From contig NC_087436.1 of NCBI RefSeq assembly GCF_036321535.1, positions 75,084,001 through 75,148,000 of the forward strand: DNA of 64,000 bases, in the 5' to 3' direction. Under the pieces are notes generated by a model. It had not been told where the DNA came from and ran no database searches. It saw only the letters and a program-made list of their open reading frames with translations. The position numbers and the translations under genes were made by a program. Positions 8,054 to 44,900 of the stretch are shown one piece after another. The first letter of the stretch is position 1, and each line of letters opens with the position of its first letter. The DNA comes from Camelus dromedarius (Eukaryota).

Positions 8054-8175
8054 CCGAGATTTCTAACTCTGCCCAGTGAGATTTTTTCCCATTGGCTACC
8101 TCCTCTGCTGACATGATGGTATAAATTCTGCGAGGATCTGGAGGATCATATTTTTCCTTTGGCATCCCTATTAGT
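8054..8175 (-). CDS. CNOT6L: CNOT6L coding exon 2 (122 bp): (R)LIGMPKEKYDPPDPRRIYTIMSAEEVANGKKSHWAELEIS(G)
   Basis: Poly-T tract, then tacag| acceptor and G|gtgagt donor. Translation matches the CCR4b N-terminus and the phases fit the neighbouring exons. Confidence 0.97.
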
Positions 8176-8409
8176 CTGTAAGGAAAAAAAAAAAAGATGA
8201 TCAACAATTACTATAGGTTTATAGGAAAAAAGAGAAAAATGGGATGGTAAGTTCTCTTTTTTTCCCCTCTTGTCAGGCTACTAAGTCCTTTTATACTACA
8301 AATTCTCATTAAAGGAAAACACATCTCTAGTATGCTAGGCTACTACAGGAACTCAATAACAGGATGTCTCAGGGAAAATGCAAAAAAGCAGTGACAATGG
8401 ACTTCACAG

Positions 8410-8930
8410 TGAACATGGTGGCTGCTTCCCAAACATCCATTGCATCTCTTTCCCTTAATTTAGCTGCCTTGCTTTCCAAGACAGACTAACCCTACACCAG
8501 TTTCCTGAATGGAGTCTGACTCCTCTAAGAGAATCAAGGTAATCCTATCCTTCTTGCCTAAGTGATATTCAGATATCCCATATCTAAGACAATCAGCACA
8601 TGACATTCCCCTTGTCACAGAGATTAGTTCAGAAGTATCTAATAACCAGGAGGCTTAAGAATCATCCTATGTTCATGGGAGGAGCAGGCTTCCCCCTCCT
8701 GCTGGTCATAAATGGAGACAAATATAGCCTCAGTTGCCATAGGCAGCCATCCAACAACTGTAAGGGAAGCCAGCCATTGCAGTCAGAAACTAGAAAACAG
8801 AGAAAGCTGGAGTCCTCAACAAACACTGGGCTTTCGGGATACACAAGCCAATCTATTATGCTTCTTGTTTAAACTACTAGTTTGAGTTGTGTTTTCTGTT
8901 ACTTGCAATCAAAATCATCCTAATTAAGAT
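8410..8930. mobile_element. MLT1-type MaLR solo LTR
   Basis: Ends gtttaaactactagtttgagttgtgttttctgttacttgcaatcaaaatcatcctaa, a typical MLT1 terminus. Confidence 0.65.
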
Positions 8931-11024
8931 GATCATGCATTTTTTTCATATTTGCTGTTCTTAGGTAATTATTAATATCATTTTTCATTACCAAAAGTGT
9001 CCAATTTGGCTGATGAGTTACATGGCCACCCTAATTGAAACTAATATTGCACAGTCTTCTTCATATAATTACCAAAATAATCACTGAACAATCATCAGCA
9101 ATGACCAACTAGACATAAAACTCCTCATGTGTGCAATGTATAAATCACATAACAAATGGCCCTAAAAGTAACCATTCAAGTGGTCTAATATAATAGTCAC
9201 CGCTTGGTAGTTGGCAGAAAATGAAACCCAATTCAGATCTAACAAGAAAAGCAAATCACAAATTCCTGAATCTAATTAAACTCCTGCATGCTATCAGTAA
9301 ATTGCCTCACAGTATTTATAGCTTTCTCTGCTCATATTTTAACACAGAGAGACATACGTACACACACCAAAATCAAATGTCTACAACTGGAGTGTTTCTA
9401 AGTAGACTTTATTAGAACTTATACCTCAATGAAAGTTACCTTCAGATGGTCTCAAATTTGTTACAAGTAGAGAATATACAAAAAATAGGAAGTATTTTGT
9501 CATTTATCAAGAAATTAAAGCTAGTTTGTAAGAGTACAATCAAAATTTCTCAAACTGCAATTTGTCCTAATATTTCTGAAGGAAAAATAGTCATCCCTTC
9601 CCATTTACTAAATGGAGCAATGAGAAAGTTTTTCCAGATTTGTTTATCTGCTATTAGCTTACAAATTACCAGGTTAAGCTCTTCTGCTCTAATTTTATCA
9701 TACAATTTGGGTGATGCTGAAACATTTTATTTTCCATAAATGCCCCAGGTCTTTATAAAGCAGAAAGAATATGATTATTTTTCACAGGGGAAAATTTTGA
9801 TTTCTACCACATTTGGCCTGTGTAAAATATTTCTGAATATAAAATTTTTAGATAACAAGGTTTTCAGAATTTCTACCATACACCATAAGGCACATGTGTC
9901 TCTGTGGGTATGTCTGCATACTAATATAAGATTCTACAAAAACACAAGATTAAGCAAAACCAAATCAAACAGATCCAGATCCAAAGACATGCTACAAATC
10001 CATTACCTACAATGAGGATCGGTTAAAAAAAAAAGACTAAGAAGTCTGCAAAAACATGTTTCATTAATTTTAAATCATTTCTATAAAACATAGAGGATAG
10101 GTCAACTTTATTTGGTTGTTTTAGTTATGGCTCCCACTAGATGGTGTGTTACTTAAGGGGACGATGAGTTACTTCTATGTGAAGGACTATCTTTTTTATA
10201 TCTTTATACAGTTCCTACCACATAGTAAGCACTTAGTATATATTTGTGGAATGATCATATGCTTTATAATCCTGAAAATGACCACCTTCCTCCGACTTTT
10301 CCCAATTAACAGTCAATGCTCTTCTAAAAATTAGCATCATGAAATGGTCATTAGTCCATATGTTCAATTTCCCTAAATATTCTTAATATCTAGATAGGAG
10401 CTTAATAACTGTCATCTCTTCTGACCCTCTAACTCTCATCTCTAAAACAGCTACCATATAAGAAATATGTATCTTTAAATTTTTCACAAGTTTCCATCTT
10501 TGCAAATCTGTTAAAATTTACAAAACCTCTTCCTGCAAAACAGATCCTGAAATGTTTACCCATGTCTATAATATGTAAAAACCAAAGTAATACTAATACT
10601 CTTATATTAGGAGTCAGAGGCCTCTTTCAGATTTGATTAGGAAGCGAATAAAAATACAATTCACTTAATTCTTCAAAGTGAATCTAGATTTGGATAGTCT
10701 GACTGAAGTTAAAATATTTTTCATTTAAGTAATTTAGAAGAGTCTATAGTTCTGTGATCACTACTATCCCAAACATCAGGTTTTCAAACATTCTACTAAA
10801 AACTTAGCTCAAATTTAGGAAATAGGTATTACTGAATCCTCCTATTCAGCTTTATTTTCTTTCTCAGTTCCTCACCTCAGCATCAACTTTCCACCCTGGA
10901 GATGTATCACAAAGACCCATTTCAAAATAACTTAAAATATAAAATAATATTATATAATAATATATAATATGTACACATAACACAAAATATTATTTAAATG
11001 ATATATAATAAATTATTTCAAATA

Positions 11025-11420
11025 ATATTTTGCCATTTGCAGCAACACGGATGGACTTGAAGGGCATTATGTTAAGTGAAACAAGTCAGAGAAGACAAAT
11101 CCTGTATGATATCACTTATATGTAGAATCTAAAAATACAACAAACTAGTGAATATAACAAAAAAGAAGTAGACTCACAGATACAGAGAACAAACCAGTGT
11201 TTACCAGTGGGGAGAGGGGCAATATAGGGGCAGTGGATCAAGAGATACAAACTATTATGTACAAGATAAGCTTCAAGGATATATTGTACAACACAGGGAA
11301 TACAGCCAATATTTTATAACTATAAATTGAGTATAACCTTTAAAAGTATGAATCACTATACTGTATACCTGTAACTTATACTGGACAGCAACAGTACTCC
11401 AACTAGAAAATAAATACATA
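11025..11420 (+). mobile_element. 5'-truncated L1 3' end (L1MA-like)
   Basis: tgccatttgcagcaacacggatggacttgaagggcattatgttaagtgaaacaagtcag...tactccaa plus A-rich tail. Confidence 0.85.
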
Positions 11421-13530
11421 GGAACAGTATGCCTGTGAGTAGAAAAAAATATGTATGTATATAAAATAATAATTCAAATGCAATTTAAGTCTCTAAATGT
11501 GACACACATGTGCTTTCTCACAGTCTCACATACAGGTCAGTCCAAGGCTTAAATACAGAGTGACGGACACTTTTCATCCAGAAAATAGGAATGTTTTATT
11601 TTGTAAAGCCTAGCAGCTTATTTTTTTTCCATCTTCTTTTTTGAATTGATAAGAGGCAGATTTTTGAATTAGTTTTTCCAAGAGTTTTCAATTTCTGCAA
11701 TGTCTTACATCAGTTCCCAAAGGATTCTCCCATTACATCAACCTAATTTATAACCAAGGATCCTGATCATGTAACAAAGTAAACTAAAAGACCCTTGGCA
11801 ACACAGCATTTTTTAACTTTCAGTCCTCAACCTCATTTCCATAGTATGAAAAATACTCCACATAGCTCCCCTAATAACTACGTAAGCTTCTCTGAACCTG
11901 CCATCCAATTTCCCCCATTCCTTGGATCTTGGCAAATCACCTATAGAGCCATCTCAGGTGCTAGTGCAAAGTTTCTGATACTGTCAGTCCTGGACAAAGA
12001 AACTGATAATCTCCTACTTGTTAGTTCCTACATGGACTATACCGAAAGTAAACAAGTTAATCTCCATCACCAAAGACAGATTAATTACCACACACGGTGA
12101 AGATTTTCGTTAGTTTATTTCTCGGCTTTCTGTTTCACTAAGCAAAAACTTCAGGTAAATTTGTAAAATACTGACTTCATGGAAAATGTATTCCAATTTT
12201 TTTACATTACAAGCGACATTATATGTAACAGTAGGGCCACTTTGCCCTAGAAAAATTTAAATTGGAGTTTCCAAAACTGTAAATAAAATACAACATGCCT
12301 ATATAACATGCTGTTCAATGAATACCATGTTACAAGATATATATGAAATACCCCCCAAATATAATATTGCTAAGGAATCCCAAATTTCAGGTTTTATACC
12401 TGGGGCTAGGGGCTAGGAAAATAACACAACATAACTCCTTCCTACCCCAACACCCCAAAAAACAATAATAATAGTTATCTGAGTCAAATCAAAGCAAATT
12501 ATTAAAGGCCAGAACTAAACTTCTGTTAATTTTGGTCATTTGGAGCAGGTTATTTAAAAAAAAAAACACAAAAACCCCACCAGGCTCTACAGTGTATATA
12601 AAGATATTAATCCTATAGTGTTAAACTACAGCTTCTCTCCCACCACCTTCTATAAATTTAAAGTCATTTATCTCAGTCTATAGTTCAGCACAATAATCAT
12701 GCAGAATTTAGAATAAGAAAGAGAAAGTGCTACAAACACCAAAGAATGCTTCATAATGAATCACAGATTTCTAACTCAATGAATCCAACCATAAAGTACA
12801 AACCATTAGACACACAGTTATTTCCAAAGAAATATTAAGTGATTGTCTCAATAGTAGTTTGCAAAGCAATCTGGGGCAGAGCTGCAGATGCTGGCAGAGT
12901 TCCCAAAGTTGAAAGAAGACAAAATTAAGCCTACATTAGATATTTCTGCTTACATTTTAGAGCAAGACGTCAATGACTTACTACATTTTACATATTCTCA
13001 GATAAATCTGTCTTCTATTGCCATTTATTCCCAAAGGTTATGCAACACATTATTTGTTATTTATTGAATACCCACCTTGACTAACATCTGTCCTTCCCAT
13101 CTGTTCTTAATTAAGACCACTTTCTTTTTTGAGAAAATATGTCTAAGTCTACCTTCTTTAATAAAGCAAAATAACTTGCACTGAAGCATTTCTGAAGTTT
13201 CTATTTCTTCATCAATATCTATCTATACACAACTATTAATCACTACAACTGTCATACAAAATTTATAACTTCCTTAAGTGTGCTCACCAGCTGATACTGA
13301 AAAACAGCACCCAGCAAATCTCACTGCATAGAGCAGAATTATATTGATGAAAATAAAGACTGATGGCAATCACAAGAGCTTAGAAGACACCCTGAGATAA
13401 ATAACAATTTCATCGACATTCCCACTCCTCTTCTATACCAAAGGCCTCTGGATGGCATTTGTCTTCAATGACATATTCAACTAAAGTCCATAGATAACAA
13501 TAATGCAAACATTCAGGAAGAACCCATTCA

Positions 13531-14725
13531 GTTTAATTAGGTCCCATTTGTTTATTTTTGCTTTTATTTCCATTGCCTGGGTAGACTGCCCTCGGAGAAC
13601 ACCTCTAAGACTTATGTCAGAAAATGTTTTGCCTATGTTTTCTTCTAGGAGATTTATAGTGTTTTGTCTATATTTAAATCTTTAAGCCATTTTGAGTTTA
13701 TTTTGTGTATGGTGTGAGGGACTGTTCTAATGTCACTGATATCCATGCAGCTGTCAAGTTTTCCCAACACCACTTGCTGAAGAGACTGTCTTTTCTCCAC
13801 TGTATATTCTTGCCTCCTTTGTTGAAGATTAATCGACCATAAGTCTGTGGGTTTATTTCTGGGCTCTCTATTCTGTTCCATTGATCCATATATCTGTTTT
13901 TGTGCCAATACCATGCTGTTTTGATTACTGTAGCTCTGTAGTATTGTCTGAAGTCTGGGAGGGTTATTCCTCCAGCTTTGTTCTTTTTCTTCACTACTGC
14001 TTTGGCAATTCTGGGCCTTTTGTGATTCCACATAAATTTTAGGATTATTTGTTCCAGTTCTGTGAAAAATGTCCTGGGTAATTTGATAGGGATTGTATAA
14101 TCCAGCAAATCCACTCCTGAGCATATTTCTGGAGGGAACTTTAATTTGAAAAGATACATGCACCCAAATGTTCACAGCAGCACTATTTACAATAGCCAAG
14201 ACATGGAAACAACCTAAATGTCCATTGACAGATGACTGGATAAAGAAGCCGTGGTATATTTATACAATGGAATACTACTCAGCCATAAAAAAGAATAAAA
14301 TAATGCCACTTGCAGCAACATAGATGGATCTGGATATCATCATTCTAAATGAAGTAAGACAGAAAGAGAAAGAAAAATACCATATGATATCACTCATATG
14401 TGGAATATATTAAAAAAAAAAGGAAACAAAAAAGAAGACATTAATTAACTTATCTACAAAACAGAAACAGATTCACAGACATATTAACAAACTTATGGTT
14501 GCCAGGGAGATGGGGGTGGGATACTAACTACTATATATAAAATAGATAAAAAAACAAATTTCTTCTGTATGACACAAGGAACTATATTCAGTATCTTGTA
14601 GTAACCTATAATGAAAAATAATATGAAAATAATTATATGTATGTATTCGTATGACTGAAACATTATGCTCTACACCAGAAATTGACATATTGCAATTGAC
14701 TATATTTCAATAAATAAATTAAAAA
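13531..14725 (+). mobile_element. Relatively young L1 with 5' inversion (13531-~14095 inverted, ~14096-14725 sense)
   Basis: 13-bp TSD AAGAACCCATTCA at 13518-13530 and 14726-14738. ORF2 peptide IPIKLP...TAWYWHKNR on the minus strand, 3' UTR and A-tail on the plus strand. Confidence 0.92.
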
Positions 14726-16285
14726 AAGAACCCATTCAAAGTTTTCATGATGTCTCCCAATCTTTCACCACTCTAAACAAAAACAAGAGAAAATCCATGT
14801 TTTACAAATGGTAAAGCCACATATCATTATGGAAAAAATAATCTTCAAACTTTCAGAATTTCATGTTTTTGACCAGTTTTACACTTATTCAACAAATATT
14901 TACTGCAGGCCTACTATCATGTATTATACCAAGCACTAGGACTTCAACAGTGGAAAAGATGAACAGTATCCTTGCCCTCATGTACCTTACACCATTCTTA
15001 CAACATGACTTGATAAAAAAAAAAGTTATTAAATATTCTTTCAAATAATTCTATTAAGAATTTGGCATTTCTTCTTGATACTACTTTTTTTCTCCTGATC
15101 AGGTAGTTGCATTGCTCCCTATTGCCACTATGCGGAAACTAGTACAGCTAAAGGGAGAATAAAATATCCTTATCACGAAGGATGAGGGTCATGAATAGCA
15201 GATAACTTGCAGAACGGTCAAGGACAAGTAGAGAGTAGGGTTCCCAGGACAAGAATGGTAAGTTTTAAATGGCCTAATATTCGGGAATGAGACAAAGATA
15301 ACAAGGTTAAATACATATCAGTACATTTAACTTAAGGTGATGAGAAATGGTTTCTTAACCCAGGGATCGTATTTTCTCTATGATTCTTACTGGTAAACCA
15401 AATAATCAGATAAAAGTTGTACCAAGGATTCTTTTGGCCTTTAGAAATATATGGACTCAATATGTTTTATTTCTAGTCAGTTTACTATTAGGGATCTACT
15501 TCATATGCCAAGTCAAACCAGTTATCTACCCAAGAAAAATGCACAGGCATATGTAACAATAAAGCCCTGGGTATGAATGACATAAACATAATGATTGTTA
15601 TACTTCTTTCTAAAGGTAATCCAAAAATAACTTTAGGGTAATGCAGAAAGATAACTTCTTACTCTATAAAAAGGTAAAAGTATAGTCTATTCGTAAAAGT
15701 GCTCTCAGGAGGGAGAGAAAAAGCAGAAAGAATAAAACTCCTTTTCTGCATATCTAGAAATTTTCTCCCATCTTTGGCATACTAGAAGACAACAGCAGCA
15801 GCAACACAAAACATAAATACTAAAAGGAAAAATGAAGACCTGGAATTACAAATCTACCAAGCACTTCAAAATTCCAATATAAGGCTACTATTAGACAAGT
15901 TTCATTTTATTTCATCAGCAATCAATTTAGACAACCAAAGCTTATGATTCTCATCCTATCATTTCAAATTAGGTCTCTACCTAACAAACACTATGCTTTA
16001 ATGCTTTTTGTATTTAATGTCTCCCATTTATCTAAAGATACTGAATACAATCTAACTATCCCACAGAAAATGGGAGGGAATTAGACTATATTAAAATTTT
16101 CAACATCAATTTTTCTGGGACTATGAGTTCCTACCCAAACCCTTATTTTTCCACTTTTTTGATGTAGCCTGAATTTTTTATTTCTTCTGGTACATACATT
16201 CTCATCTCTTTCAATGATGTCAAAGTCCCATCTATCCCTCATAGTGGAAATCATCTTTCACCTGTTCTTTAGAATATTTCCCCAT

Positions 16286-19200
16286 GTAAAAATCAACAAG
16301 CTGATTCTAAAATGTATGTGGAAGGATCTAGAAGAAACAAAACACTTTTGAAAAAGAACTGTAAACTTGGATGTCCCCACTATCTGATATCAAGCCTTAC
16401 TAGAAAGCAACAATAATCCAAGCAGTTTGGTACTGATGGAAACATAGACGTGTATAGTTCAAGAAAACAGGACCAAGAAACCAGATATAGACCCATACAC
16501 ATACAGTCAATAGATTTTCATAAAGGTGTGAAGGTACTCAATATATCGAGAAAGGACAGATTTTTCAACAAATGGTGCTGGGAAAACTGGAGATCTGTAT
16601 GCCAAAATAAAAAAATAAGCATCAATCCACACTTTGCACCATAAACAAAATAAGTTAGAAGGATCTAAGCTTAAGCGTAAAACCAAAAACTATAAAACTT
16701 ATAAAAGAAAATATAAGAGAAAAATCTTTGTGACCCTGGATTAGGTAAACATTTCTTAGATAAAACAAAAGCACAATCCATAAAAAAAATACTGACAAAC
16801 TAGATTTCTTAAAAATTTAAAACATCTGATCTTTGGAACATGATTGAAAAGACATGTCCAGGGATTGAGAATAAATATCTGCAAAACACTTATGTGAAAA
16901 AGTACTCCAGAATATATAAAGTACTCTCAGAACAAAATTATAAGAAAATATGTGCTGCAGAAGTGAACATGATATTCCAATTTTTTAAAAAGTGGCAAAA
17001 ACATTTAACAGAGATTTCACCAAGAAGATACACAGACAGAAAATAAGCACATGAAAAAATGCTCAACATAAGGCATTAGGGAAATGCAACTTAAAATCAC
17101 AATTAGATATCACTACATACCTATTAAAATGATTACACGGAAACTTAACAATAGCTAAGACTGACAAGGAAGCCTCCCACACATACACCCACATCCTTGT
17201 GTATATGTTTATACATATACACATATTTGTACATACATCCATACATACACAAACCCTCATATTTTGTTGGTGGGAAAGCACAATAGTACTGCCACTTCAG
17301 AAGACAGTTTGGTAGCTTCTCATAAAGTTATAAACACATTTATACAACCCAGCAATCCTATCCCCAGGTATTTACCCGAGTAAAATTAAAACTTATGCTC
17401 ATACAAAAATTCATGCATAAATATTTGTAGCAAGTTTATTTATAACCACCCAAAACTGGAAAAAACCCAAATGACCTTCAACTGACAAAAAGGTAAACTG
17501 TGGTACAGCCATACAGTGAAATATTACTCAGCAATAAAAAAGGATTGAACTAATGATACACACAACATGGATGAATGGCAAATGCATTAATGCTAAATTA
17601 AAGATGCCATACTCAAAAGGCTATACACAATATACCTCAATATAATAAAGGCCATGTATGACAAGCCCACAACATACATCGTACTCAATGGTGAAAACCT
17701 GAATGCTTTTCCTCTAAGATCAGGAACAAGACAAGGATGCCTACTCTTGCCACTTTCATTCAACACGGTACTGAAAGTCTTAGCCAGAGCAATTAGATAG
17801 GAAAAAGAAAGAAAGAAAAAAAAAGATCCAAATCTAAAAGGAAGTACAACTATTTGTTTGCAGGTAACATGTTATCACATATAGCTAAAGACTCTACAAA
17901 AAAACTGTTAGAGTAAATGAATTCGGTAAAGTTACAGGATACAAAATCAATATACAAAAAATCTGTTGTTTCTATACACTAATAACAAACTATCAGAGAA
18001 ATTCAGAAAAAAAAACAGATTAACATTTGTTTCAAAAAGAATAAAATACTTAGGAATAAATTTAACCAAGGTGAAAGACCTTACACTGAAAACTGTAACA
18101 CACTGATGAAAGAAACTAAAGACACAAACTGATGGAAAGATACTCCATGCTCATGGATTGGAAGAATTAATACTGTCAAAATATCCATAAATGCCCAAAG
18201 CAATCTGCAGATTCAACGCAATCCTGATAAAATTCTCATGGCATTTTTCACAGAAATAGAACAAACAATCCTAAAATTTATATGGAACCACAAAAGACGC
18301 TGAAGAGCCAAAGAAATCTGGAGAAAGAACAAAGCTGTAGACATGCTTCCTGATTTCTTACTGTATTACAAAGCAATAAACAGTATGATTTTGAATAAAA
18401 ACAGATACATCACTCAATGGAACAAAACAGAGAGACCAGAAATAAACCCACAAATATACAATCAGTTAATTTATAACAAAGGAGCCAAGAACATACAATG
18501 GGAAAAGAACAGTTGCTTCAGTAAGTGATGATGGGAAAACTGAACAGCCTATCATACACCATACACAAAAATCAACTCAAAATTAATTAAAGAACTGAAT
18601 ATAGACTCAAAACCATAAAACTCCTAGAAGAAAACATAGGGTGTAAATTCCTTGACTTAGCAATGCTTTTGGGGGTTTGACACAAAAGCAAAGGAAACAA
18701 AAACAAAAATAAACATGTTGGACTAAATCAAACTAAAAAGCTCCTGCTCGGTAAAAGAAACCATCAACAAAATGAAATGGCAACCTACAGAACGCGAGAA
18801 AATATTTGTAAATCATATATCTGACAAGAAGTTAATATCCAAAATATATAAAGAACTCATACAACTCAATAGGAAAAAAATCCCATTTAAAAATGGGCAA
18901 AGTATCTAAACAGACACTTTTCAAAATAGGTACATGAAGAGGGGCTCAACATCACTATTTATCAGGGAAATGCAAATCAAAGCCACAATGAGGTATCACC
19001 TCACATCTGTTAAAATAGCTATTATCAAAAAGACAAGAGACAAGTGTTGGTGAGGATGTGGAGAAAAGGGAACCCTTGCACACTGTTAGTGGGAATGTAA
19101 ACTGGTACAGCCACTATGGAAAACAGTAAGGAGGTTCCTCAAAAAATTGAAAACAGAACTACAGTATGATCCAGTAATTCCACTTTGGGTATTTATTCCA

Positions 19201-20045
19201 AGAAAACAAAATCACTACCAGAAAAGATACCTGCACCCTCATGTTCACTGCAGCATTATTTACAATAGCCAAACATACAACCCATCTATGTGTCCATCAA
19301 CAGATGAAGGGATAAAGAAAATGTGATACACATACATATACACTCACTCACAAAACACACAATGAAATATCAGTCATTAAAAAAAAAAAAAGGAAATCCT
19401 GTCATTTGAAACAACATAGATCGATTCTGAAGGTACTATCCTAAGTGATGTAAGTCAGACATAGAAAGACAAATACTGTAACTCACTTTAATGTGGAATC
19501 CAAAAAAACAAACAAACAAATAAACAAATAAATATACTCATAGACTGATTGGTGGCTGCCAGAGGCAGGGGTTGGGGAGGGGGGCAAAATGGGTGAAGGG
19601 AGTCAAGAGGTAGAAACTTCCAGTTACAAAACAAGTCCCGGGGATGTAATACACAACTTGGTGACTAAAGTTAGTAATACCGTACAGTACATCTGAAAGT
19701 TGCTAAGAGAAATCTTGAAAGTTTTCATCATACACACACAAAAAAATTGTATAACTATGCAGTGAAGAATGTTAACGAAACTCACCTCGTGGTAATCATT
19801 TCACAGTATATGCATGTATCAAGTCATTATGCTGTACACCTGAAACTAATACAATGTTACATGTCAATTATAATCTCAAATTTTTAAAAAGGCTATGTAC
19901 TATATAAATCCATTTATGATATTCCAGAATAATCTAAACTATGGGGACAGAATACTGATAAGTGACTGCTAGGGGCAAGGGGTGGAGGGAGGGCTAGACT
20001 ATAATGAGGATAAAGCAATTTTCGTGATGATGTGAACTACATATA
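16286..20045 (+). mobile_element. Old L1 (L1MB/MC-like) 3' part, interrupted by a nested L1 at ~17625-19886
   Basis: ORF2 remnants (FFNKWCWENW). The host 3' UTR resumes after the nested element. Confidence 0.8.
17625..19886 (+). mobile_element. Nested ~2.3 kb 5'-truncated L1 (L1MA-like)
   Basis: Starts in the RT region (aatggtgaaaacctgaatgcttttcctctaagatcaggaacaagacaagg), runs to the 3' UTR, and is flanked by AAAAGGCTAT repeats. Confidence 0.88.
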
Positions 20046-23190: not shown

Positions 23191-23248
23191 ATACTGAAAC
23201 AACAAATCACAGTCTCAAATTACAGCACACACTGAAGTCCCCTCTAAA

Positions 23249-32900: not shown

Positions 32901-33003
32901 CAATGAATATGTGTATGTTCATGTATGACTGAAAAATTATGCTCTACACTTGAATTTGACACAATATTGTAAAATGATTATAAATCAATAAAAAAAATTT
33001 TTT
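32901..33003 (+). mobile_element. ~100-bp L1 3' terminus inserted in an L2 fossil
   Basis: gtatgactgaaaaattatgctctacac...ttgacaca closely matches the 3' end of the L1 at 14640-14720. Flanking tttcttttct repeats. Confidence 0.75.
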
Positions 33004-33589: not shown

Positions 33590-34120
33590 ATCATCCATTT
33601 ATTTAATAAACAGTTACTAAGACCCTAAAATATGTTAAACACTTAGTACATAGTAGGGGTTAAGCCCATACTATGTATCAAATGCTGGAGCTACAAAGGT
33701 GAGGTCTCTCTGCTCTTAAAAATCTCACAGTCTAGTGCAAAAGCAGAGACATAAACCAGGTAAATACAAGACAGCGTGGTAAATGTCATGAAAGAGGAAT
33801 GCACAGGATGCTGAGGGAGCAGAGAGAAAGAGCATAAAGCAAAGACTAGAAGTGTCAGGCAAGGTTTCTTGGAGTAGGAAGCACCTTAAGTGAATTATTA
33901 AAGAAGTCACCGAGGTCATAAAGTATTAAGGTATTGCAGGCATACAGAAAGCATAAACCAAGCTGTATATAAGTCACTTGGCATGGCTAGGCTAGAGAAT
34001 ATGCTTGAAGAGAGAGGAGTAATAAACAATAAAACTGGAAAGGTACACAAGGATAAAATCATTATGGGCCTTGCATAAAATGCTATGAAAGTTCCTTTTT
34101 ATTCTGAGAGCAATAAGCAG
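33590..34120 (-). mobile_element. L2 fossil 3' region
   Basis: catccatttatttaataaacagttact...ctcacagtctagtg...gtcaggcaaggtttcttggag. Confidence 0.6.
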
Positions 34121-34320
34121 CAGCAAGATATGCTGGTAAGTATACAAGTTTAGGAATTCCCATGACCTAAACCTGAATTCAACCTCCTGTGTCACTTGCT
34201 ATGTGACTTTCTTCAAACTTGCCTCTCTAAGCTTCAGTTTGGTCAACCATAAGACAGAATTAATAATACCAATTTTGCCAAGATTCTAACAGTAAGTTAA
34301 TTCATGTCAATCTCCTAGCA

Positions 34321-34512
34321 CAGGGGTGAGTAAGCTGCAGCTTGGTTTGCCAGCAATGAATGGTTTTACATTTTTTAAGAATTGTTTACTTTAAAAAAGA
34401 AAAACTACAACCAAAAAAAAAAGAGAAGAATACAGAACAGAGATCTTATGTGACCCACAAAGCCAAAATATTTACTACATGGCTCTTGACATAAAAAATT
34501 TGCCAACTCCTT
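34321..34512. mobile_element. MER58-like hAT MITE within a MIR
   Basis: caggggtgagtaagct...tgtgacccacaaagccaaaatatttactacatggctcttgacataaaaaatttgccaactcct. Confidence 0.65.
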
Positions 34513-34999
34513 CCAGTAGCACATAATAGGCAACCAAAAAATGGAGTCCTTTAATAATAATTACTATGTAGGGAATTTAAGCAATGTCGAATGAATTTTA
34601 CAAGAATTTCTCTGGTGACAATGTATACAAGGAGCAGAAGTTAAAGGAGAAATAATGGATGTTGGGAAACAAACAAGGAGAATGCTGCAGTAATCCATTA
34701 ACTTTTCCTTTCCCTCCTTCCAACTATAAAGGCGAGATCTACTTCTACCTCCTTTCTTTGTCCCTGCAAGTTACAAACCCACTTGTGTTCCCTATATTAT
34801 AGCACTTACTGTTCTTTGTCACTTAGCAAATTCTACCTTAACTTGCTTGCTCTTTATCCAGGCTTAAATCCCCTATAAGTGTTAAGTATTGTAAGGGTAA
34901 AGTAAATACTTTAGAGTCAAATAGATCCTGTTTTAAACATTGGTATTAACAATAGTCAAATTTGTTATTTTACTTGTGTGTCTCCTAACAATAAGAAAC

Positions 35000-35260
35000 A
35001 GTAATAGCTAATATAGAGTTTTTAGTTTAGTTTTGTTTTTTTACTTCAGATGTGCCACATACTGTTCTAAGCACTTTATAGGTATTACTTAATTTAACCC
35101 TCACAGCAACATTATAAGATTAGGACTATTAATTACTGTCTCCCTATTACAGATGTGGAAATTGAAGCATGGAGAAGTTAAACGAGTCCCCCACGAGCTA
35201 GAAAGAGAAGGACCTAAGGCTCACATTCCTAAACAGCTATAGATTGAAAACCACACTGTC
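35000..35260 (-). mobile_element. MIR fossil
   Basis: gttctaagcacttt...tttaaccctcacagcaac...attacagatgtggaaattgaagcatggagaagttaa. Confidence 0.7.
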
Positions 35261-36917
35261 TAATTCACAGGAGTTTCATGAAGACTAATTTATGTTACAT
35301 ACTTAAAGGGAAGGGGATGGCTTTTCACAGTCCTTAGTACTCAGTAGTCCAATAAATATTAGTCCCACTTCCTGGTAGAAAAAACTATGTTCTGAACTTT
35401 TTCCCTCAGAACCCTGAATATAACAGTTTATAGCCAGTAGAAATTTAATAAACGTTTATTAAATAGGTTAGGTATACTTTTGGTGATTCAAATTCTTATA
35501 CTGTTTCAAGGTTATCATTCTGTACTTAATTCACAATATATTATTTCAGAAATTTGTGTATATTTTGCAGAAGATTACACTAAATATGTACCTATAGCAG
35601 AATACACCTTGTCAATTTTTTGGTTTTCTTTAAATATAAATATTGTGATCAGTTAGCAATGGGTATATGTGTAAAGATCTCAGCAAAGTCTTTGTACAGA
35701 AAGACATTAAGGTTGGTATATTCTAAATTTAGTTCTATTCTCTTAGTGATATCTGTTACTGGCAAATATCACTATGATCTATGTTACTCATTCAGAGAAT
35801 CTATTTAAGTAATTTGGGAGGAGAAAAATAAAAAGATCCTAAACGATAAGATTTCAGAGAGGTTCTCTCAGCAAAAGATGATATAAGAGAGATAAACTGC
35901 TATAACGTCTATTTTGTGTCACCAATTTGTGACACCAATTTCTATTGTTAATAAATGAAAACCCCAAATTACCAGGAATCTATTCAGTATGAATGATGAG
36001 TCTCTCACACAGCAAAGCAAACTACTTACTTCTTCAAAAAAATTAGAAATAAATTTTTATCTGTAATGAGGTTTTAAAGTGAACTGAAAAAAATTAATGA
36101 AAATAATCCTGCTATGAAAGAGAATACAAAACAAAAATTCTATTATTACTTTCCAATTTTTGCCTTGTTATCAGAAAGATTCTTAGCTAAATCCCAAAGT
36201 TATTTGATCTGAGACTTATAACATAAAGGAAGAAATATAATTAAAAAAAAAATTACCTAATCAGAATGCAGCTGCATGCAAACACAATTACAGCTTCAAA
36301 GGTAAACAAAGTGTGATTATCACTTCAAGTGAAACATAACCTTACCTTGTAGAGCAAAATTTCCTAAGAAATCTATTACTTTCTTGAAAACTTACAAAAA
36401 TAAAACCATTGATACTGAATGTTTTAGGGAAAAAAGTCAGGTGACAGCCAGGGTCAAAGTAAACATGGAATTCTTCATAAACCATACCCTTGATATCACA
36501 AAGGTTTGTTCTCTTCTTTTTAATTCTATGGTTAGAATTTCTTTTATGATTTAGTTTCTTTCTGCTTCCTGTGTCCCCATCCAACCTAGCTATCAAACTT
36601 AAAAAGAAAAACTTCTCCACGGTGTTTTTATTGAATGCTTTTCAAAAGAAGCAACATTCTCCACTGACCTAGAAATCCAAATTATTCAGAAAATCTTCAG
36701 TAAAGGATTAAGGGTCTTCCAAATGTGTATATGGACTAATGAAGACAATTAGCACGAAAGGAGTAGGGAGGAAAATGAAGGAGGGAGAGGGAAAAAAGGA
36801 GCCCCTCCTTCCCAAACAAGTTAAGCATTATTATCTGCTACTTATTACTGGACATAGCATCTTCATTTTTCTAATTCACATTTCATACTTCCCTCAAAAC
36901 TCAATCTCAATACCCTC

Positions 36918-39085
36918 TTCAATTCAACAAACTAGGAACAGAAACTTCCTGAATCTGATAGAGGGCATCTATGAAAATGCCACAGCTAACGTCAGACTTA
37001 ACAGTGGAAGACTGAATACCTTCCCCCAAGATCAGGAGTAAGAAAAGGATATTTGCTCTTGACACTCCTTTTCCACAATATACTGGAGGGTTTATCCAGG
37101 GCAATTAGGCAAGAAAATCAAATAAAAATGCATCCATATTGGAAAAGAAGTAAAAATATACTTATTTACAGGTGATGTGATCCTTGTTATAAAGAAAATG
37201 CTATGGAATCCAGTAAAACTATTAGAACTAATAAACATGTTCAGCATGGTTGCAGGATACAAGATCAATATACAAAAGAAATTTACTGTATTTTTATACA
37301 CTTGCAATAAACAACACAAAAATGAAATTAAGAAAACAATTCCATTTACAACAGCATCTGAAAGAATAAAATATTTAGGAATAAATGCAACAAAAGAAGT
37401 CTAAAACTTATGCTCTGAAAACTACAAAACACTATTGAGAGAAATTAAAGAAGACCTAAATAAATGGGAAAATCCCATGTTCATGAACACGAACTAATTT
37501 AATATTGTTAAGTTGGTAATTCTCCCTAAACTGATCTACAGACTTAACACAATTCCTCTCAAAATCCCAGCTGGCAGAAATTGACAAGCTAATCCTAAAA
37601 TTCATATGGAAATACAAGAGATCCCAAATAGCCCAAATGATCTTTAAAAAAAGAATAAACTTGGGGAACTCACACTTCTCAATTAAAGTTACAGTAGTCA
37701 AGACAGTACTGGAATGAGAAATGTCATAAAAATGAATGGAATAAAATTAAAAGTCCAAAAATAAATCCTTACATTTGCAGTTAATTGATTTTCGATAAGA
37801 GTGACAAGACAATTCAATGGAGAAAGAGCAGTCTTTTCAACAAATGGTACTGAGATAACTGGTTATCCACATGCAAAGGAATAATTTTAGACTCCTTACA
37901 TCAGGCCATAAATATAAATTAACTTAAAATGTAGCAAAGATCTAAATATAAGAGCCAAAACTATTAAACTCTTAGAACAAAACAGACAGGTAAATCTTCA
38001 TGATCTGAGATTAATAAGTGGTTTCTTAGATACAACACTAAAAGCACAAGCAACAAAAGAAAAAGTTAGATTTCATCAAAATTAAAAACTTGTTCTTCAA
38101 GGGACACCATTAGGAAAGCAAAAACAACTTACCAAATGGAGAAAAATATTTGCAAATCAAATGTGTAAGGGACTTGTATCTATAATGTACAAAAAAAAAA
38201 AAACTCTTATAAGGTCAATAACAAAAAGATACATAACAACTTCAAAGTGGGCAAAAGATCTGAATACACATCTCTCAAAAAAACATACAAATGGCCAATA
38301 AGCAAATGAAAAGACACACAGTATCGTTAGGGAAATGCAAATTAAAACCACAAGATACTACCTAACACCCATGAAAAGAGCTATGATCAAAAAGACAGAT
38401 AACAACAAATGCTGGCAAGATTTGGAGAAACTGCAGCCCTCATACACTGCTGGTGGAAATGGGAAATGGTGACGCTGCTTTAGAAAACAGCCTGGAAATT
38501 CCTGAAAAGTTTAAACATAGAAGAATGATATGATTCAGCAATTCCACTCCTAGGTATATAACCAAGAGAAGTGAAAATCATGAACACAAAAACTTGTACA
38601 TGAATGTCATAGTAGAACTATTTATAATAGCCTAAAAGTACAAACAACCCAAATGTGCATCAGCTGATAAACAAAATGTGGTATATCCATACAGTGGCAG
38701 ATTATGCAGCCATAAAAGAATAAATTACTATTACATAATATAACATGGATGAACCTTGAAAACAAGGTAAGGGGAAGAAGCCCATGATAAAAGACAACAT
38801 ATTATATAAAAGACCACATATTCTATTAAAATAGGTTCTATTTGTATGAAATGTCCAGACCAGGCAAATATATAGCCAGAAAGCAGATCAGTGATTGCCT
38901 ACAATTAAGAGTATGAGAGAATGAAGGGTAACTCTTAAATACAGGATTTATATTTCAGGTGATTAAAATGTTCTATAAATTTTTGTGATCGCTGCACAAC
39001 TATGAATATACTAAACACTACCAAGTTATATACTTAAAATGGGCTACTCCTATGGTAAGTGAATTATATCTCAAAAAAGCCATTA
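36918..39085 (+). mobile_element. ~2.2 kb 5'-truncated L1 (L1MB-like)
   Basis: ORF2 remnant VAGYKINIQK...IPFTTASERIKYLGIN, continuous to the 3' end gaattatatctcaaaaaagc. Confidence 0.88.
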
Positions 39086-40329
39086 CCCAAAAACCTCTCA
39101 ACTCTTTTAGTCCCCACCCCACCTACCATTCCATTTTATGTTACTCTTTTTCAGAATGTCTGTAAACAGTTTATATTGTATATATTGTTTATACTGTGGT
39201 GACTTGAACTTGTTCATTTATTGTTTTGAAGTAACTAAATTACATGTTTTATCATCCTTACTCATGAGCTATAAGCTTCACAAGGGTTTCTTCTACCTCT
39301 TTCATACTTCTCTTTAAAACAAAGTATAATGATGGGTACAGAATGTGCCCTCAAAAAAGGTTTTTAATTTTCAAAATGCAAAATATTATAAACAGTTAAC
39401 ATGGAGAAGTTAGCCAGACTACTCAAAAATTTCTCTTTTTAGGAAATACAGGTACATATAAAGCTCTCCAGATCCCTAACCAAACTCTCCAGAATAAAAA
39501 TAAATAAAAGTGGATGCAGAGCTGAGATTTCACATTACAATAATTCTAGGCAATAAAAAAAAGTTGTGATTCAATTAAAATTAAAGTTATCCAGAAATCA
39601 AATTCACTTAATGTATGTAGGGTTCAGTGTAAGTGCAGGTGGTCAAACAAAGTTGTAGTATTTTCATCATGAAACACGAGCACAGGTTAATAATTAAGTC
39701 TTCATTGTTTACTTGATGATTTTATTATTCTTTCTGGGTTAAGGCTTACAAATATTAATTACAATGACTTTAGAATTAAAAAACAGCAACAGAAAACACT
39801 AGAACACAGTAAGGTCCACCTAAATGGCATTTCTTTAAAGTATAAGGTAATAATAATAACAATAATGATGCTCTCTCCCAACAGAAAAAGAAAATTCAAA
39901 AAAATGTATTTCCCATGAAACTGTATCTCAGAAACGGAAATTCTAAATCAACTGATTTCAAAGTACAAAGAGAAATAAATCAAATAGCCAGAACCCAGCA
40001 GACCACAATGGCAATCAATAACCAGATAATAAAAGAGAAACCCACTAAAGGTATAAATCCAATTGTAATATTCTCTGTAAAATCTGTATCTTTAAACAGC
40101 TGCTGAAACTTGTCATTCAAACCTATCTTAGAAGAGAGTCCCTTCTTCCCTCCTCCTCCTCCTGTCCTTACTCGGTCCCTTCTCTTCCCATCACCCCACA
40201 ACTTTCCACACAATTTTACTCTCTGAAGAAAGAAAACAACTTTTAAGCATTATTATTCACCTTTTAGCCATAATTTCACAAATATATGCTACCATCTAAT
40301 ATAACATCATGAAATGCCCCCAGCTGTCT

Positions 40330-40660
40330 ACCACCCAGGGACTACATTCCCATCCCCCTTGCATTCAAATAAGATTCTATGACAAATTCTCACCAGTGAA
40401 ATGTGGGCAGATGTTTGTCTTTGGGGGTTCTTAAGAAATATCCTGTGGGTAACAGGCAGCGCTCCAAGTCTCTGGGGAATGGTGCAGCCATAAGATGTAA
40501 GATGTCTGGGTCCCTCAATTACCACATGGAGGAAAGCCACAAGCCTACTAACAAGGAGCACCTGCACTGGACTGTTATGTGAGCAAAATAAAAACTTACA
40601 AGTGTTAAGCCACTGACATTTTGGAGTGTATTTATTACCCTAATTAGCATTACCCAAAGT
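40330..40660. mobile_element. MLT1-type solo LTR fragment
   Basis: cagtgaaatgtgggcaga...tggactgttatgtgagcaaaataaaaactt...gttaagccactgacattttgg. Confidence 0.65.
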
Positions 40661-42089
40661 AATCCATGCACGAATCGTAAGTATTTCAATTCCCCCTAAT
40701 TAAAGACATTCCTAACGGATATTTTGGAAAAATTGTTTAAAAGCCCATTTAAGTAACGTTAAATTTTAAAACCTACACAATTTTCCACCTTGATTTTATT
40801 GTCATTACTTGAAATGATAGAAAGAGGAGTTCCACTGTTTATATCACTATTCACATATCTTAATATATTGCTCATTATCATCTACATTCATGATTATTAC
40901 AGAAAAATGTCTTCTTCAATTCTCCAAATTAAGAAAAAAGTATAAAGTGTTTTAAAATACCATAATTTATAATGTCTAATAAAAATTACCAAACACCTAG
41001 TTAAAGGCAAAATTCTGTTTTCTATTTTATTGTTTTTAAAGTATTAATACTTACCACATAATTTTTAAGGTAAGAATTCTTCCTTTAAATATAGCCATAT
41101 GGCAGATAATTCTGCTCACTATAAATGCACACACACCCATAACACACACACTTTAACAAAACATTTTGCATTCTAATAAAGTTCTCCCTCCTATCCTTCA
41201 CAAAAATCCTCCACAAATGTGTTCAAATTTTAATGATTTACCAGGGTTTTTTTTATAGCTTAACATTGCTGATATAAATAATAATAATAAGGTCTAAACT
41301 GGGAAACCTGGCATTAGTGAAGAGACACTGCAAGCTTAAATCAATGAAACTTCTCCCACACTCTCTTCACCCTGCCTTCACCAAAAATAACAGAAAGAGA
41401 AAAAAGAAAAAAAAAAACTTTAACCACTCTGTTGCCTTTGCCTTAAACTGTATCATTATTTTTTCCACCACAATACAATTAAAACTAAATGAACAGCACA
41501 TTTATCACTCCACACAGAAAAATAAAAATGGAAAATTATTGAAAGCTGATAGATTTTTGCTTCCATTCACCAAAATATTCCAAAACGTTTTTATTCTTTT
41601 TTTTTTCTTTTAACCAGAATCAGTCAACGGGAACTAAAACAATTACAGAGCAATTTTGTGGCACGTATACTTTGTGGATCTACATAAACTCTAGTTCCTT
41701 GATTCTGTTTAATGCTTGATTGTATTGGAATATATATGTGCTATATATATAGCTTAAACAATTTTTTCCAGGGCTACACAGCAAGAACTCATAAAAAGAG
41801 TAATGAAACTGAAAGATGGCCTATTCAAAAATCTGAGAAAAAATTAAGTATGACTATACACTAGTACACTAGATAATTTTAATGACAGTTTTAGTTCTAA
41901 GAAAATGACTTGTAGAATACATTTAACATTGTGTTCATATACCTAACTTATACCAAAGGACTCTGAAATGTTCTATTGTCTTGATTTTTAACTTACAGTA
42001 ACATAATACTGCTCTCAGCAATCCAATGAGTATTTGTACTTGTTTGTTTATGTTTTTCAAGGCCCACAGTCAGGGGCTGCAGGAGGAAA

Positions 42090-42295
42090 AACTAATATTT
42101 AAGTAAGCATCTACTATGTGGCAAACATGTTTTTTCAATCTATCCTCAGTACAACCTTACTATAAGGGTATTATCTTCTTATTGATGAGAAACAGGAGCT
42201 TATAGACATTAGGTACCTTGCCTAAGATCAAAGAGCTAAGAAAAATGGCACAGCCAGAGTCTGAGGTCTGTAAAATAAGTTCTTTTTCCACTAAA
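42090..42295 (-). mobile_element. MIR fossil
   Basis: gcatctactatgtggcaa...attgatgagaaacaggagctt...ttgcctaagatcaaagagctaag. Confidence 0.6.
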
Positions 42296-43742
42296 CTACA
42301 TGTGGTTTTTTTTTTCAGTAGTGATCATAGAAAACAGCCCTCCACCCCTCCTGCTCTTGTCCTCACTTCCCAGTGAACAGCAAGGAACATTTCTTTGTGA
42401 GACCAGGTTCAAAAAGGAGCAATCTCTGGCCATTACACAGAGCGTGGCCTGCGAGGATCGAATCTTGGTCATGACTTTAGCTACAAGGTTTTATGTAGAT
42501 GAACTAACTAGACGCAAATAGAGGGTGGAGTAGATAAAGTAAACAGCAAATAATTATCCAAATGCCATTTATATTTGCTTCTGAAATGCACTGTACGCCT
42601 ACTGGCAGCAGATTTACCTTTACAGTTGGTTTTGCTTAGACTACTCTCAAAATAGCTTTCCAAAAGCACACACCAATACACGATAGAGGCTGCTTGATCT
42701 AGGTCTTGGAGACTGAGAGAAAACTTATTTGTACACGACTATCTTGACTGACAATTAAGATAACTAGAGGCAAGAAGGTAGTATCTCCTCATACACAGTA
42801 CTGGGCTTCAATGTGTACAAACGGCTCAGCTAAACTCCCCGAACACAATCCATCCAAACAACCTAAGCCATGTATCCGTCCAGGCTAAGGAGGATGACAG
42901 CTCCAGTAACTTCCTCTTCCTCACAGACCTCCTCAGCTCGGCGTGTACACGCCTTTCCCCCTAGGAGGCAGGATAAAACAATTTCAAATGCACAAAACCG
43001 ATCCAATCCCACCAACACCACAGGACAGGGAAGCCAGCTTCCATTTCCTCCCCCGCCTCTCGGAGAAAAATTTTATCTTAAAAAAAATGCGTTAATATTC
43101 CCAACGAGAAAGTATCTGCAACGAAAAAACTGAAAATACGTACTCCACACAGCCTTAAGGAAAGGATGAAAAGAAGGGGCCTCGACATCGCGTATACTCG
43201 AGATTTACTGCTTTGATTCACTTTCCCTTGGGTCCCACCGCCGGCCAGGGGAGCGCTTGCCGCTGGAACGCCAAAACCTGCCTTCGCCCCTCCTCAGGAG
43301 ACGCGGAGGCGGCCGAGGCGGCCAAGGCGACGGCGATAGGCGCGTCCCGCCTCCGACCCTCACCTGCCCAGGCCCGAGGCAGCGCCGTGGGCCCGCGCGG
43401 GCCCGGCGTCCCGGCGAGCGTCCAGGGAGGCCGGCGGGAGGCAGGCGGGCGGGAGGCAGGCCGGCGGGCGGGAGGCCGCCGAGGCGGTTAGGCCGCGCTG
43501 CAGGCCGGCACGCTTCCTGCCGCGGCCCCGGGAACGGCGGCGCGGCCCCGACCCGGAGCTCTCCCGGCCCGGCTGCTGTGCGTGTGCCGCACACACATTC
43601 ACCCTCCCCGGCCCCCGCGGAGCCGCTCACCTGCGAGGCTCCGGAGCCTCGGCCACAAAGGGGGAGGGACACGCCGCTCGGGGGTCCTGGACACACGGAA
43701 CCCGCCCACAGAGTCCCGGGCCCTGGGCACGGACCACCCCCC

Positions 43743-43743
<1 letters not shown>

Positions 43744-43795
<52 letters not shown>
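43744..43795. repeat. Interrupted (CA)n microsatellite
   Basis: acacacac...caaacacac...cacgcaca. Confidence 0.95.
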
Positions 43796-43796
<1 letters not shown>

Positions 43797-44011
43797 ACCC
43801 GGAACCTTCGCCGCCTCCGACAGAGCCGCGGGTCAGCCCCGTACCCGACACACACCCACTCGCTATGGGTCCTCAGGCCGCCTCCACGGCCGCCAAAGTC
43901 CCAACTCGCACACCCACACACACATTTCCCCCTCTCCCACCTCACTGCCCTGGGGACGCGCTCCTCTTCCCAACACTCTCGATCCTACTCAGAGACACAA
44001 AAACACTCTAC

Positions 44012-44016
44012 CTCAT
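44012..44016 (-). CDS. CNOT6L: CNOT6L canonical first coding exon, coding part (ATG AG = Met-Arg codon split)
   Basis: Minus strand reads gaagagaATGAG|gtagag. Splicing to exon 2 (A CTA ATA GGG ATG CCA) gives MRLIGMPKEKY, the N-terminus I recall for CNOT6L. Confidence 0.9.
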
Positions 44017-44297
44017 TCTCTTCCTCCGGCCCAGAAAGAGCAACAGCAGCCATTTCCCCGCGGCAGGGGAAACACACACACAAACACGCGCGCGCGCGCG
44101 CACCAGGCCCCCACAGATGCTTCCCCTCCAGAGCCTCGGCCGCAGACGCAAACACAAACACCCACGGGCGGGCCTCGCTCCCACCCGCCCCGAAGGGAAG
44201 CGGCGGCGGCAGGCAGGGCCCGAATCCCGGCTCGCGGCGGGCGGCCGCACAGGACGCCCGGGCCCGCGGTCGCGGAGGGCCTGCGCCCCTTCCTCAC

Positions 44298-44900
44298 CTG
44301 CATTCAGCGCGCCGGGGTCCGGGCGGCGGCGGCGGCGGCGGCGGCGGGGCGGCTGCTGCTGGTGCTGGTGCTGCGGCGGCGGGGGAGGCGGCGGCGGCGG
44401 TGGTGGCGGGGCTGAGGGCAGCAAAGACATGCAGGCAGCCCGCCGGGGGGAGAGGCACCGGCCGGAGGGGACGCGGGGCGGGCGGGCCGGGCCGCCTGAG
44501 GAACGGCAGAGGCAGCGGCGAGGAGGACGGCTGAAGGGAACGAGGAGGAGACGGATGGGGGGCGGGGAGGGGGCCGAGGGCCGCGCAGCCGGGTTTCGGG
44601 GACGGTGACCCTGGGCGCGCAGGAGAGGCCCCGCGGCCGCGGCCACCGACGCAAAGGCCCCTGACGGAGGAAGCTGCGCCCCCGCACCCGCCGGAGCCGC
44701 GGCTGTTACGCCGAGAGCCGCGCTGTGCCTGGCCTTGGCCTTGGCCTCCAAGCGCTGGGGCTGCCGCCGCTGCGGGGGTTGCTGCTGCGCCTACTGCTGC
44801 CGGGGCCGAGACTGCTGCACAGAGACGCCAGCTTTCGGTGCCTCCGCTCTGGTTCACACACGTTCACACCCCCGAGCGCCGGGGGAGAGGCGTCCGCGCG
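44298..44900 (-). other. CNOT6L: Putative upstream alternative first exon of CNOT6L (5' boundary/TSS uncertain)
   Basis: Consensus donor GCAG|gtgagg at 44298/44297, at the end of a GC-rich, CCG/CAG-repeat-rich segment downstream of the promoter motifs. Confidence 0.6.
44322..44400. repeat. Compound (GGC)n / (GCT/GGT)n trinucleotide tract
   Basis: (GGC)8 at 44322-44345, then GCT/GGT triplets and further GGC runs. Confidence 0.9.

Follow-up and report, generated by a model that had tools for sequence, protein, structure and literature searches.

A conserved, putatively repressive upstream open reading frame split between the first two exons of CNOT6L

The AUG at position 44430 of the dromedary CNOT6L leader most probably heads an ancient, likely repressive upstream open reading frame (uORF) of 45 codons, with start, donor and stop conserved from teleosts to mammals and with splicing mainly to the first AG of exon 2; we give this reading a probability of roughly 0.65. 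Positions refer to the window, that is, the whole 64-kb stretch of DNA analysed, and the features are collected in Table 1. Exons 2 and 3 identify the gene as CNOT6L: they match mouse CNOT6L (P0123) at 100% and 96.8% identity, and a bird CNOT6 at 90% and 88.9%. Exons past exon 4 were not found within the window.

Table 1. Features of the CNOT6L leader and first coding exons in the window.
Feature	Position	Strand	Remarks
Part of CpG island with both first-exon candidates	44000..45499	.	GC 0.61-0.80; CpG obs/exp 0.81-0.92
Exon 1a part of upstream ORF	44298..44430	-	AUG 44430; 44 codons + 1 nt, on CCG/CAG repeats
Second exon-1a AUG	44301..44303	-	AUG 44303, 6 nt before donor; via first AG, 11-codon ORF overlapping main start
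Exon 1a donor	44292..44300	-	CAG/GTGAGG; last exon base 44298
Exon 1b end	44012..44053	-	Strong-context AUG 44053, opening a 23-aa overlapping uORF through first AG; human orthologue: Ribo-seq ORF c4norep86
AUG 44016 and exon 1b donor	44006..44016	-	GAG/GTAGAG, last exon base 44012; first AG gives the annotated MRLIG start; 16 MRLIG records among those listed
Exon 2 from first AG	8054..8175	-	122 nt
TAA stop of AUG-44430 uORF	8171..8173	-	5 nt before main AUG; also present in L001 and L002
Second AG (putative acceptor)	8168..8169	-	Would start a 114-nt exon at 8167, with phase 1 at either end
Main AUG (MPKEK)	8163..8165	-	AUG at 8165
TGA stop of overlapping uORFs (AUG 44303, AUG 44053)	8146..8148	-	20 nt into coding region; also present in L001 and L002
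Exon 3	5516..5702	-	187 nt; continues the AUG-44430 frame upon exon-2 skip
Exon 4	4107..4192	-	86 nt; phase 1 at its end

The geometry given in the preliminary description holds: AUG 44430 lies in a weak context (T at -3 and at +4), its 44 codons run 133 nt to a phase-1 donor at 44298, and exon 2 offers two AG acceptors 8 nt apart (tacag/ACTAATAG/GGATG; exon starts 8175 and 8167). Through the first AG the frame stops at codon 46, 5 nt ahead of the main AUG; through the second it joins the enzyme in frame with 45 extra codons. With the first junction, an AUG and its in-frame stop precede the main start in the spliced leader, as computed from the frames. Start context, uORF length and the spacer to the next start influence scanning and reinitiation. 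Exon 1a is likely spliced mainly to 8175. Most ribosomes would scan past the weak AUG, and for those initiating there, 45 Pro/Arg-rich codons and so short a spacer would make reinitiation inefficient; the uORF would take a share of the scanning ribosomes away from the main start and reduce CNOT6L output. Both the translation of AUG 44430 and its repressive effect are what we infer here. Both first exons carry out-of-frame AUGs ahead of the main start, so the selected feature is likely a limit on deadenylase dose and not the peptide.

Exon 1b, with its donor (last exon base 44012) and AUGs 44016 and 44053, had been overlooked in the preliminary description, as had AUG 44303 in exon 1a. The MRLIG start and the exon-1b overlapping uORF both use the first AG. 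In the human Ribo-seq catalogue, the sole CNOT6L row of 7,264 ORFs is c4norep86, which has 30 nt on exon 2 and therefore uses the first AG, at hg38 chr4:77776392; the AUG-44430 ORF is absent from that catalogue (PMC10032668). The window counterpart of c4norep86, starting at AUG 44053, lies in the same gene, uses the same acceptor and stops at the same point, 20 nt into the coding region, with one additional codon. Whereas c4norep86 begins in exon 1b and runs across the main start, the AUG-44430 ORF begins in exon 1a and terminates ahead of it; the latter has no entry in this catalogue and can be traced to fish. The paralog CNOT6 also has a translated uORF in its GC-rich leader, c5riboseqorf135, with 43 codons, rich in Arg runs and strongly negative by PhyloCSF (PMC10032668). 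It differs, however, in being unspliced and catalogued as young, and no sequence relation between it and the AUG-44430 ORF was evident.

Conservation was assessed among vertebrate gene models and in three loci, two non-mammalian CNOT6L loci (L001, L002) and one CNOT6 locus (L003). The register between AUG and donor is kept in 17 of the 19 scorable records, from 15 species, with 15 to 44 codons between the two motifs, and the donor-side motif can be made out in models from fish, a turtle and marsupials. The breaks occur in P0321, where the repeat tract is frameshifted, and in a turtle (P0156). Counted by lineage, the frame is kept in 6 of 8 (rough p 0.02). For salmonids and catfish there are records of both frames, so that the AUG itself is pinned down. 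The TAA is present in both non-mammalian CNOT6L loci and absent from the CNOT6 locus; in Danionella, exon 2 begins SSG (P0118) and the TAA would be lost. To judge from the sequences compared, conservation of the AUG, the donor and the TAA stop spans teleost fish and mammals, and the AUG-to-donor register and the exon-2 start appear to be conserved beyond chance. We rejected the proposal that indels in multiples of 3 would be diagnostic in mammals, because CCG/CAG tracts slip by 3; the test is informative in fish only, where spacers of 15, 17 and 19 codons are not triplet repeats and the register is still kept. Unexpectedly, the AUG, its register and a second YAG in the two non-mammalian loci were recovered; the frame was broken in two records and the peptide was not conserved.

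The peptide itself recurs across taxa only in its first two and last two residues, and the fish versions (15-19 codons) have no Pro, Gln-His or Arg8 content. In the window the open frame is not beyond chance, since 78% of 5000 shuffles were stop-free over 44 codons (the stretch is 81% GC). All eight Arg codons are CGC, 10 of 17 Pro codons are CCG, and the remaining reading frames of the exon-1a stretch also give poly-Ala/poly-Pro or poly-Arg. The poly-Pro/Arg8 peptide is a by-product of CCG/CAG triplet repeats. The docking and localisation roles once proposed for it found no support, its content being lacking in fish and frameshifted in P0321, and we rejected it as a functional motif, unconserved and repeat-derived as it is.

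A purely repressive uORF need not hold its frame for 450 million years, yet this one mostly has, and it is precisely the conserved frame that would lead into the enzyme via the second AG or exon 3. These observations run against the uORF reading, as do the missing catalogue entry, the YAG shared by both non-mammalian loci and the Danionella exon 2.

The motifs may instead have been conserved for non-translational reasons, as promoter or splice signals at the ends of the exons or as an RNA-binding-protein site, with the AUG seldom used. The weak context and the missing catalogue entry fit this account, as do the exon-2 starts of the three loci (ACTAAT, ACTAAC and ATTAAC), which we take to resemble a QKI/SF1-type ACUAAY site; triplet repeats, moreover, vary in steps of 3 without coding constraint. 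We nevertheless find it distinctly improbable, given that non-triplet fish spacers hold register and that the adjoining exon-1b uORF is translated in human.

Acceptor use was examined in 241 stored CNOT6/CNOT6L protein records, with up to 15 members listed per cluster. Among these, 94 read through the first AG: 15 orthologous models join it to the exon-1a end, 16 carry MRLIG, and 63 are others that include some intron read-ins or CNOT6. Together with the AUG, donor and TAA reaching into teleosts, the 15 exon-1a models bear out the uORF half of the preliminary description. The second-AG junction occurs in 1 of the 241 listed, a GenBank model from Labeo (P0119), but the RefSeq models of the same species begin at MPKEK. 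No mammalian protein or annotated isoform with an N-terminal extension was found among the records listed.

The human circular RNA circ_0006168, which we take to derive from CNOT6L, offers a further view, as exons 2-4 sum to 395 nt with the first AG and 387 nt with the second. By listing counts only, '395' is present in two circ_0006168 papers and '387' in neither; under the hg19 offset that we assume, the first-AG coordinate is present in two papers, again by listing counts only. Judged by length and coordinate, this circular RNA uses the first AG. The second-AG coordinate string turned up in one paper, an unrelated epidemiology review, and was discarded.

The preliminary description had proposed that regulated choice of the second AG yields a functional 45-residue Pro/Gln-His/Arg8 N-terminal extension. 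Two close AGs do stand behind a single pyrimidine tract, as in a tandem acceptor; the junction is in frame, its register is conserved, and the second AG, which L001 and L002 retain as YAG, coincides with the sole CNOT6 acceptor in L003. Yet the first AG is a CAG right after a long T tract, the second is a TAG, and the first of such a pair is expected to be preferred. None of the transcript-based records examined supports the 8-nt switch, the human Ribo-seq ORF and circular RNA both use the first AG, and fish lack the low-complexity content. A protein search with the 44-aa peptide gave no match among 269 candidates, which is weak evidence, and a profile-free search of the 134-aa frame against 1.84 billion representatives gave two matches, one an orthologous unspliced ORF with the tract frameshifted and the other an unrelated Pro-rich protein. 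Tandem alternative splice sites likewise place two AGs a few nucleotides apart, but the putative CNOT6L pair is spaced by 8 nt, shifts the frame and is not NAGNAG; the majority of tandem sites are regarded as noise (PMC8055015). We therefore regard the regulated extension as highly improbable; the second AG is likely an ancestral acceptor in common with CNOT6 and a minor site at most.

In silico, AUG 44430 reaches the enzyme in frame by three routes: the second AG, an exon-2 skip and a long first exon. For the last of these, the 1a donor would be ignored and the 1b donor used, so that AUG 44430 runs 138 codons into MRLIG. The frame is open in the window, the acceptor is an ordinary one, P0321 retains the donor-1a-to-MR frame, and five RNA runs from two studies contain 0.85-0.90 of the words of 43950-44950, possibly as DNA. 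However, marmoset (P0011) is in a different frame across the spacer, dinucleotide repeats are crossed, and long open frames are expected at such GC; we consider this route extremely remote.

Skipping of exon 2, or of exons 2-4, would make AUG 44430 a second, regulated start of the enzyme, with phase-1 exon 1a joined to exon 3 and the uORF peptide replacing the first 38 residues, likely with weaker CAF1 binding. The skip is in frame within the window, would explain the conserved phase, and is seen in two separate fish lineages, in RefSeq XP_060763218.1 (the catfish Neoarius, P0264) and UniRef A0A8C8DC22 (Chinook salmon, P0201). The alignment of P0264 with the solved CNOT6L chain begins only near residue 38. 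Exon 2 encodes M1-K28 and the start of LRR1, whose hydrophobic surface is covered by CAF1; only M1-K28 precede the LRR in human CCR4, and their deletion had no detectable in vitro effect, while yeast Ccr4 similarly has extra sequence before the LRR, there constitutive and partly structured (PMC8216464). Against the skip, its models number 2 of the 241 listed, both fish with no mammal, and gene models are predictions. The fusion frame is broken in P0321 and the turtle, a shifted donor in smelt would lose the fusion too, and exon-2 skipping may merely accompany the formation of the circular RNA. We judge a regulated second start rather unlikely; should the enzyme ever be initiated at this AUG, the exon-2 skip is a better-supported route than the second AG. 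A combined account is tentative and, in our view, unlikely: since early bony vertebrates the AUG would have done double duty, as head of a repressive uORF and as initiator of a new-N-terminus deadenylase upon skipping of exon 2 (or of exons 2-4, the circularising piece) or upon second-AG use.

Returning to the repressive uORF, its closest likenesses include the PAPOLA and PKC-eta uORFs, conserved upstream AUGs in the leader of a dosage-sensitive regulator; their repression was tested, whereas that of CNOT6L is deduced from sequence (PMC3474909). Unlike theirs, the CNOT6L uORF has its start and stop on separate exons 36 kb apart, with splice fusion to the main frame possible. Among the papers listed on CNOT6L/CNOT6 leaders and isoforms, none was devoted to this uORF, to the tandem acceptor or to the skipping of exon 2.

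As the evidence stands, the element joins the known conserved uORFs as a further example. A real splice-dependent fusion would add a hitherto unrecognised form of CCR4 to a complex whose range of isoforms is described as not fully known (PMC12746107). A form with a new N-terminus, if real, would lack part or all of the CAF1-binding LRR and place CCR4 outside CCR4-NOT or in competition with it. CNOT6L is one of the catalytic subunits of the main mRNA deadenylase, and a leader element shared by fish and mammals would offer direct control over its dose, for instance in oocytes, Cnot6l loss being a cause of sub-fertility (PMC12746107).

The promoter and exons 1-4 of CNOT6L lie within the window on the minus strand (see table), and the gene is mammalian, with exons 2 and 3 sharing 100% and 96.8% identity with mouse CNOT6L versus 90% and 88.9% with bird CNOT6. 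The preliminary description had proposed that two exon-2 acceptors 8 nt apart switch AUG 44430 between an upstream ORF (uORF) and a proline- and Arg8-bearing extension of the enzyme. Its coordinates all proved right when we rechecked the sequence, and in silico the acceptor choice does decide between a stop before MPKEK, the main start, and an in-frame fusion. The observation is thereby confirmed, and the interpretation is partly supported. Neither the openness nor the composition of the frame is surprising: the exon-1a stretch it covers is 81% GC, 78% of 5000 shuffles remain open, the arginines come from a (CCG)8 tract read as eight CGC codons, and both other frames contain similar homopolymer runs. 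The paralog CNOT6 has a likewise Arg-rich, translated 43-codon uORF in its leader, reported with a PhyloCSF of -182 in mammals (PMC10032668), which shows how such peptides originate from GC repeats.

Table. Features of the CNOT6L 5' region in the window (minus strand)
Feature	Position	Remark
AUG, exon 1a	44430	44 open codons, ending in phase 1 at the donor
AUG	44303	ORF overlaps main start, stops 20 nt inside coding region
Donor, exon 1a (last exon base)	44298	CAG/GTGAGG
AUG, exon 1b	44053	strong context; ORF overlaps main start, stops 20 nt inside coding region
AUG, exon 1b	44016	via donor 44012 and first AG gives the MRLIG start
Donor, exon 1b (last exon base)	44012	GAG/GTAGAG, 3' of AUG 44016
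Further consensus donors	43630, 43602	downstream in CpG island; possibly a third first exon
Exon 2 start, first AG	8175	AUG-44430 frame stops at codon 46, 5 nt ahead of main AUG
ACTAAY/ATTAAC sequence	8170-8175	start of exon 2
Exon 2 start, second AG	8167	AUG-44430 frame in frame with MPKEK
Main AUG (MPKEK)	8165	

The unexpected part of the result is the apparent conservation of the AUG-to-donor register. Where a gene model extends into exon 1a, its AUG and donor regions appear in one of three readings, so that the register could be scored in 19 of 21 picked non-duplicate records with exon-1a sequence (two were not scorable). The window's register was kept in 17 of the 19, from 15 species (goat, three marsupials, pike, four salmonids, smelt, three catfish, Labeo and Danionella). 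The register was broken in a turtle (P0156) and in record P0321, a mammal-like ORF whose repeat tract changes frame several times. For six of the 17, which begin at the AUG itself, the frame follows by construction; without them, 11/13 records or 6/8 lineages keep the register, the latter with a rough p of 0.02 against a one-in-three expectation. Triplet slippage by itself preserves frame in mammals. Two frames on record fix the AUG at the DNA level in salmonids and catfish; in mammals and marsupials we infer it from the peptide. Fish have a spacer of 15-19 codons and mammals one of 39-44, only the first two and last two residues are common across records, and the ORF does not qualify as a conserved-peptide uORF. 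In smelt (P0301), an AUG just 5' of the exon-1a donor has become an in-frame start (MHVRLTD), apparently by a 5-nt donor shift deduced from the protein, much as exon 1b supplies the MRLIG start in mammals.

Thirteen loci were fetched for comparison. In both non-mammalian CNOT6L loci (L001, L002) the AGs remain 10 and 2 nt ahead of the AUG, and each of the two upstream frames keeps its stop, TAA for the uORF and TGA for the overlapping ORF. For CNOT6, whose acceptor the preliminary description had asked about, locus L003 has a single AG, 2 nt ahead of its AUG. Given this pattern, the ancestral acceptor is probably the second AG. Danionella counts against conservation, as its exon 2, judged from the protein, begins SSG and would lose the TAA, and so does the apparent donor shift of smelt. 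The sequence that opens exon 2 in the window, L001 and L002 resembles a QKI/SF1 binding motif and might be relevant to skipping of exon 2 or to circle formation. Teleost cnot6-type read-ins (P0031-P0039, P0089) end SVIG, SVLG or SITG ahead of MPKEK, which at the protein level may mean a similar AG pair. In two invertebrate CCR4 loci that look like transcripts and whose protein begins MPKEKY, an out-of-frame AUG lies just upstream, opening a two-codon uORF that ends 4 nt before the main start (L006, ~280-296) and an overlapping ORF (L009, ~97-128).

Indirect evidence on acceptor use favours the first AG. We compared 241 stored CNOT6L/CNOT6 proteins of at least 290 aa (the representative of each cluster plus at most 15 of its listed members, with redundant isoforms left in) from the best 120 of 243 hits. 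Among these listed matches, 118 begin at MPKEK and are uninformative, 17 do not show the pattern of the exon-2 start, the MRLIG form accounts for 16, the first AG is joined to the end of exon 1a in 15 and read through in 63 more (partly intron read-ins and CNOT6), and 11 are other forms. The second-AG junction appears once, in a GenBank entry for Labeo rohita, a species whose two RefSeq models begin at MPKEK. An acceptor of minor use could escape notice in protein models. We take circ_0006168 to be the circle of CNOT6L exons 2-4, which sum to 395 nt if the first AG is used or 387 nt if the second is, and we placed the first-AG coordinate by an assumed hg19 offset. By term counts, two papers on the circle give '395', not '387', and two give the first-AG hg19 coordinate. 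Among Camelus dromedarius runs, 20 of the 24 listed (5 recorded as RNA) contain at least half of the words of the first-exon region. The second AG counts as a candidate tandem acceptor.

Start codon 44430 might also serve twice, as a uORF start and, by splicing, as an enzyme start. The ORF would fuse to the enzyme in just the phase that is conserved, exon-2 skipping in the window would do so in frame as the second AG would, and two fish models (RefSeq XP_060763218.1, UniRef A0A8C8DC22) join the uORF peptide directly to exon 3; however, no mammalian record among the matches listed has an exon-2-skip or exon-2-4-skip form, and we consider dual use unlikely. Exon 2 encodes M1-K28, described as dispensable in vitro, and its next ten residues begin LRR1, the CAF1-contact repeat (PMC8216464), so the skipped form, which aligns to 7voi_C from about residue 38, would likely bind CAF1 poorly. 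Because exon 4 ends in phase 1, the linear mRNA left after exons 2-4 circularise would keep the frame as well and would lack most of the LRR; exon 5 was not found within the window.

The preliminary description overlooked the second donor and AUGs 44016, 44053 and 44303. If a long first exon were spliced from the 1b donor, AUG 44430 would have a third route into the enzyme, in a frame open in the window but not in marmoset. In human, the ORF that starts at AUG 44053 has an orthologue in Ribo-seq ORF c4norep86, whose 30 nt of exon 2 correspond to the first AG; c4norep86 is the single CNOT6L row in the supplement of PMC10032668, whose 7,264 human ORFs do not include the AUG-44430 ORF. That source labels c4norep86 'primatomorpha - young'. 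Its start, frame and stop are kept in the window (44012-44053), and an Acomys (rodent) model, P0275, opens with the same peptide, so this uORF may be older than its label.

Our searches of CNOT6L/CNOT6 literature for uORF, isoform and skipping did not find the AUG-44430 element; either the ORF or the acceptor may be recorded in supplements of PMC8055015, PMC7530721 and PMC13275300. The element resembles a conserved repressive uORF, a known type, whose workings it would share if, as we infer, it is translated and represses. In this best-supported mechanism, the first AG would receive exon 1a, a fraction of scanning ribosomes would be caught at the weak AUG 44430, and these would stop just ahead of the main AUG and probably be lost. 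Exon 1b would have the same effect through its strong-context overlapping uORF, translated in human. Since both first exons would divert ribosomes, the conserved element would then be the brake, and not the peptide.
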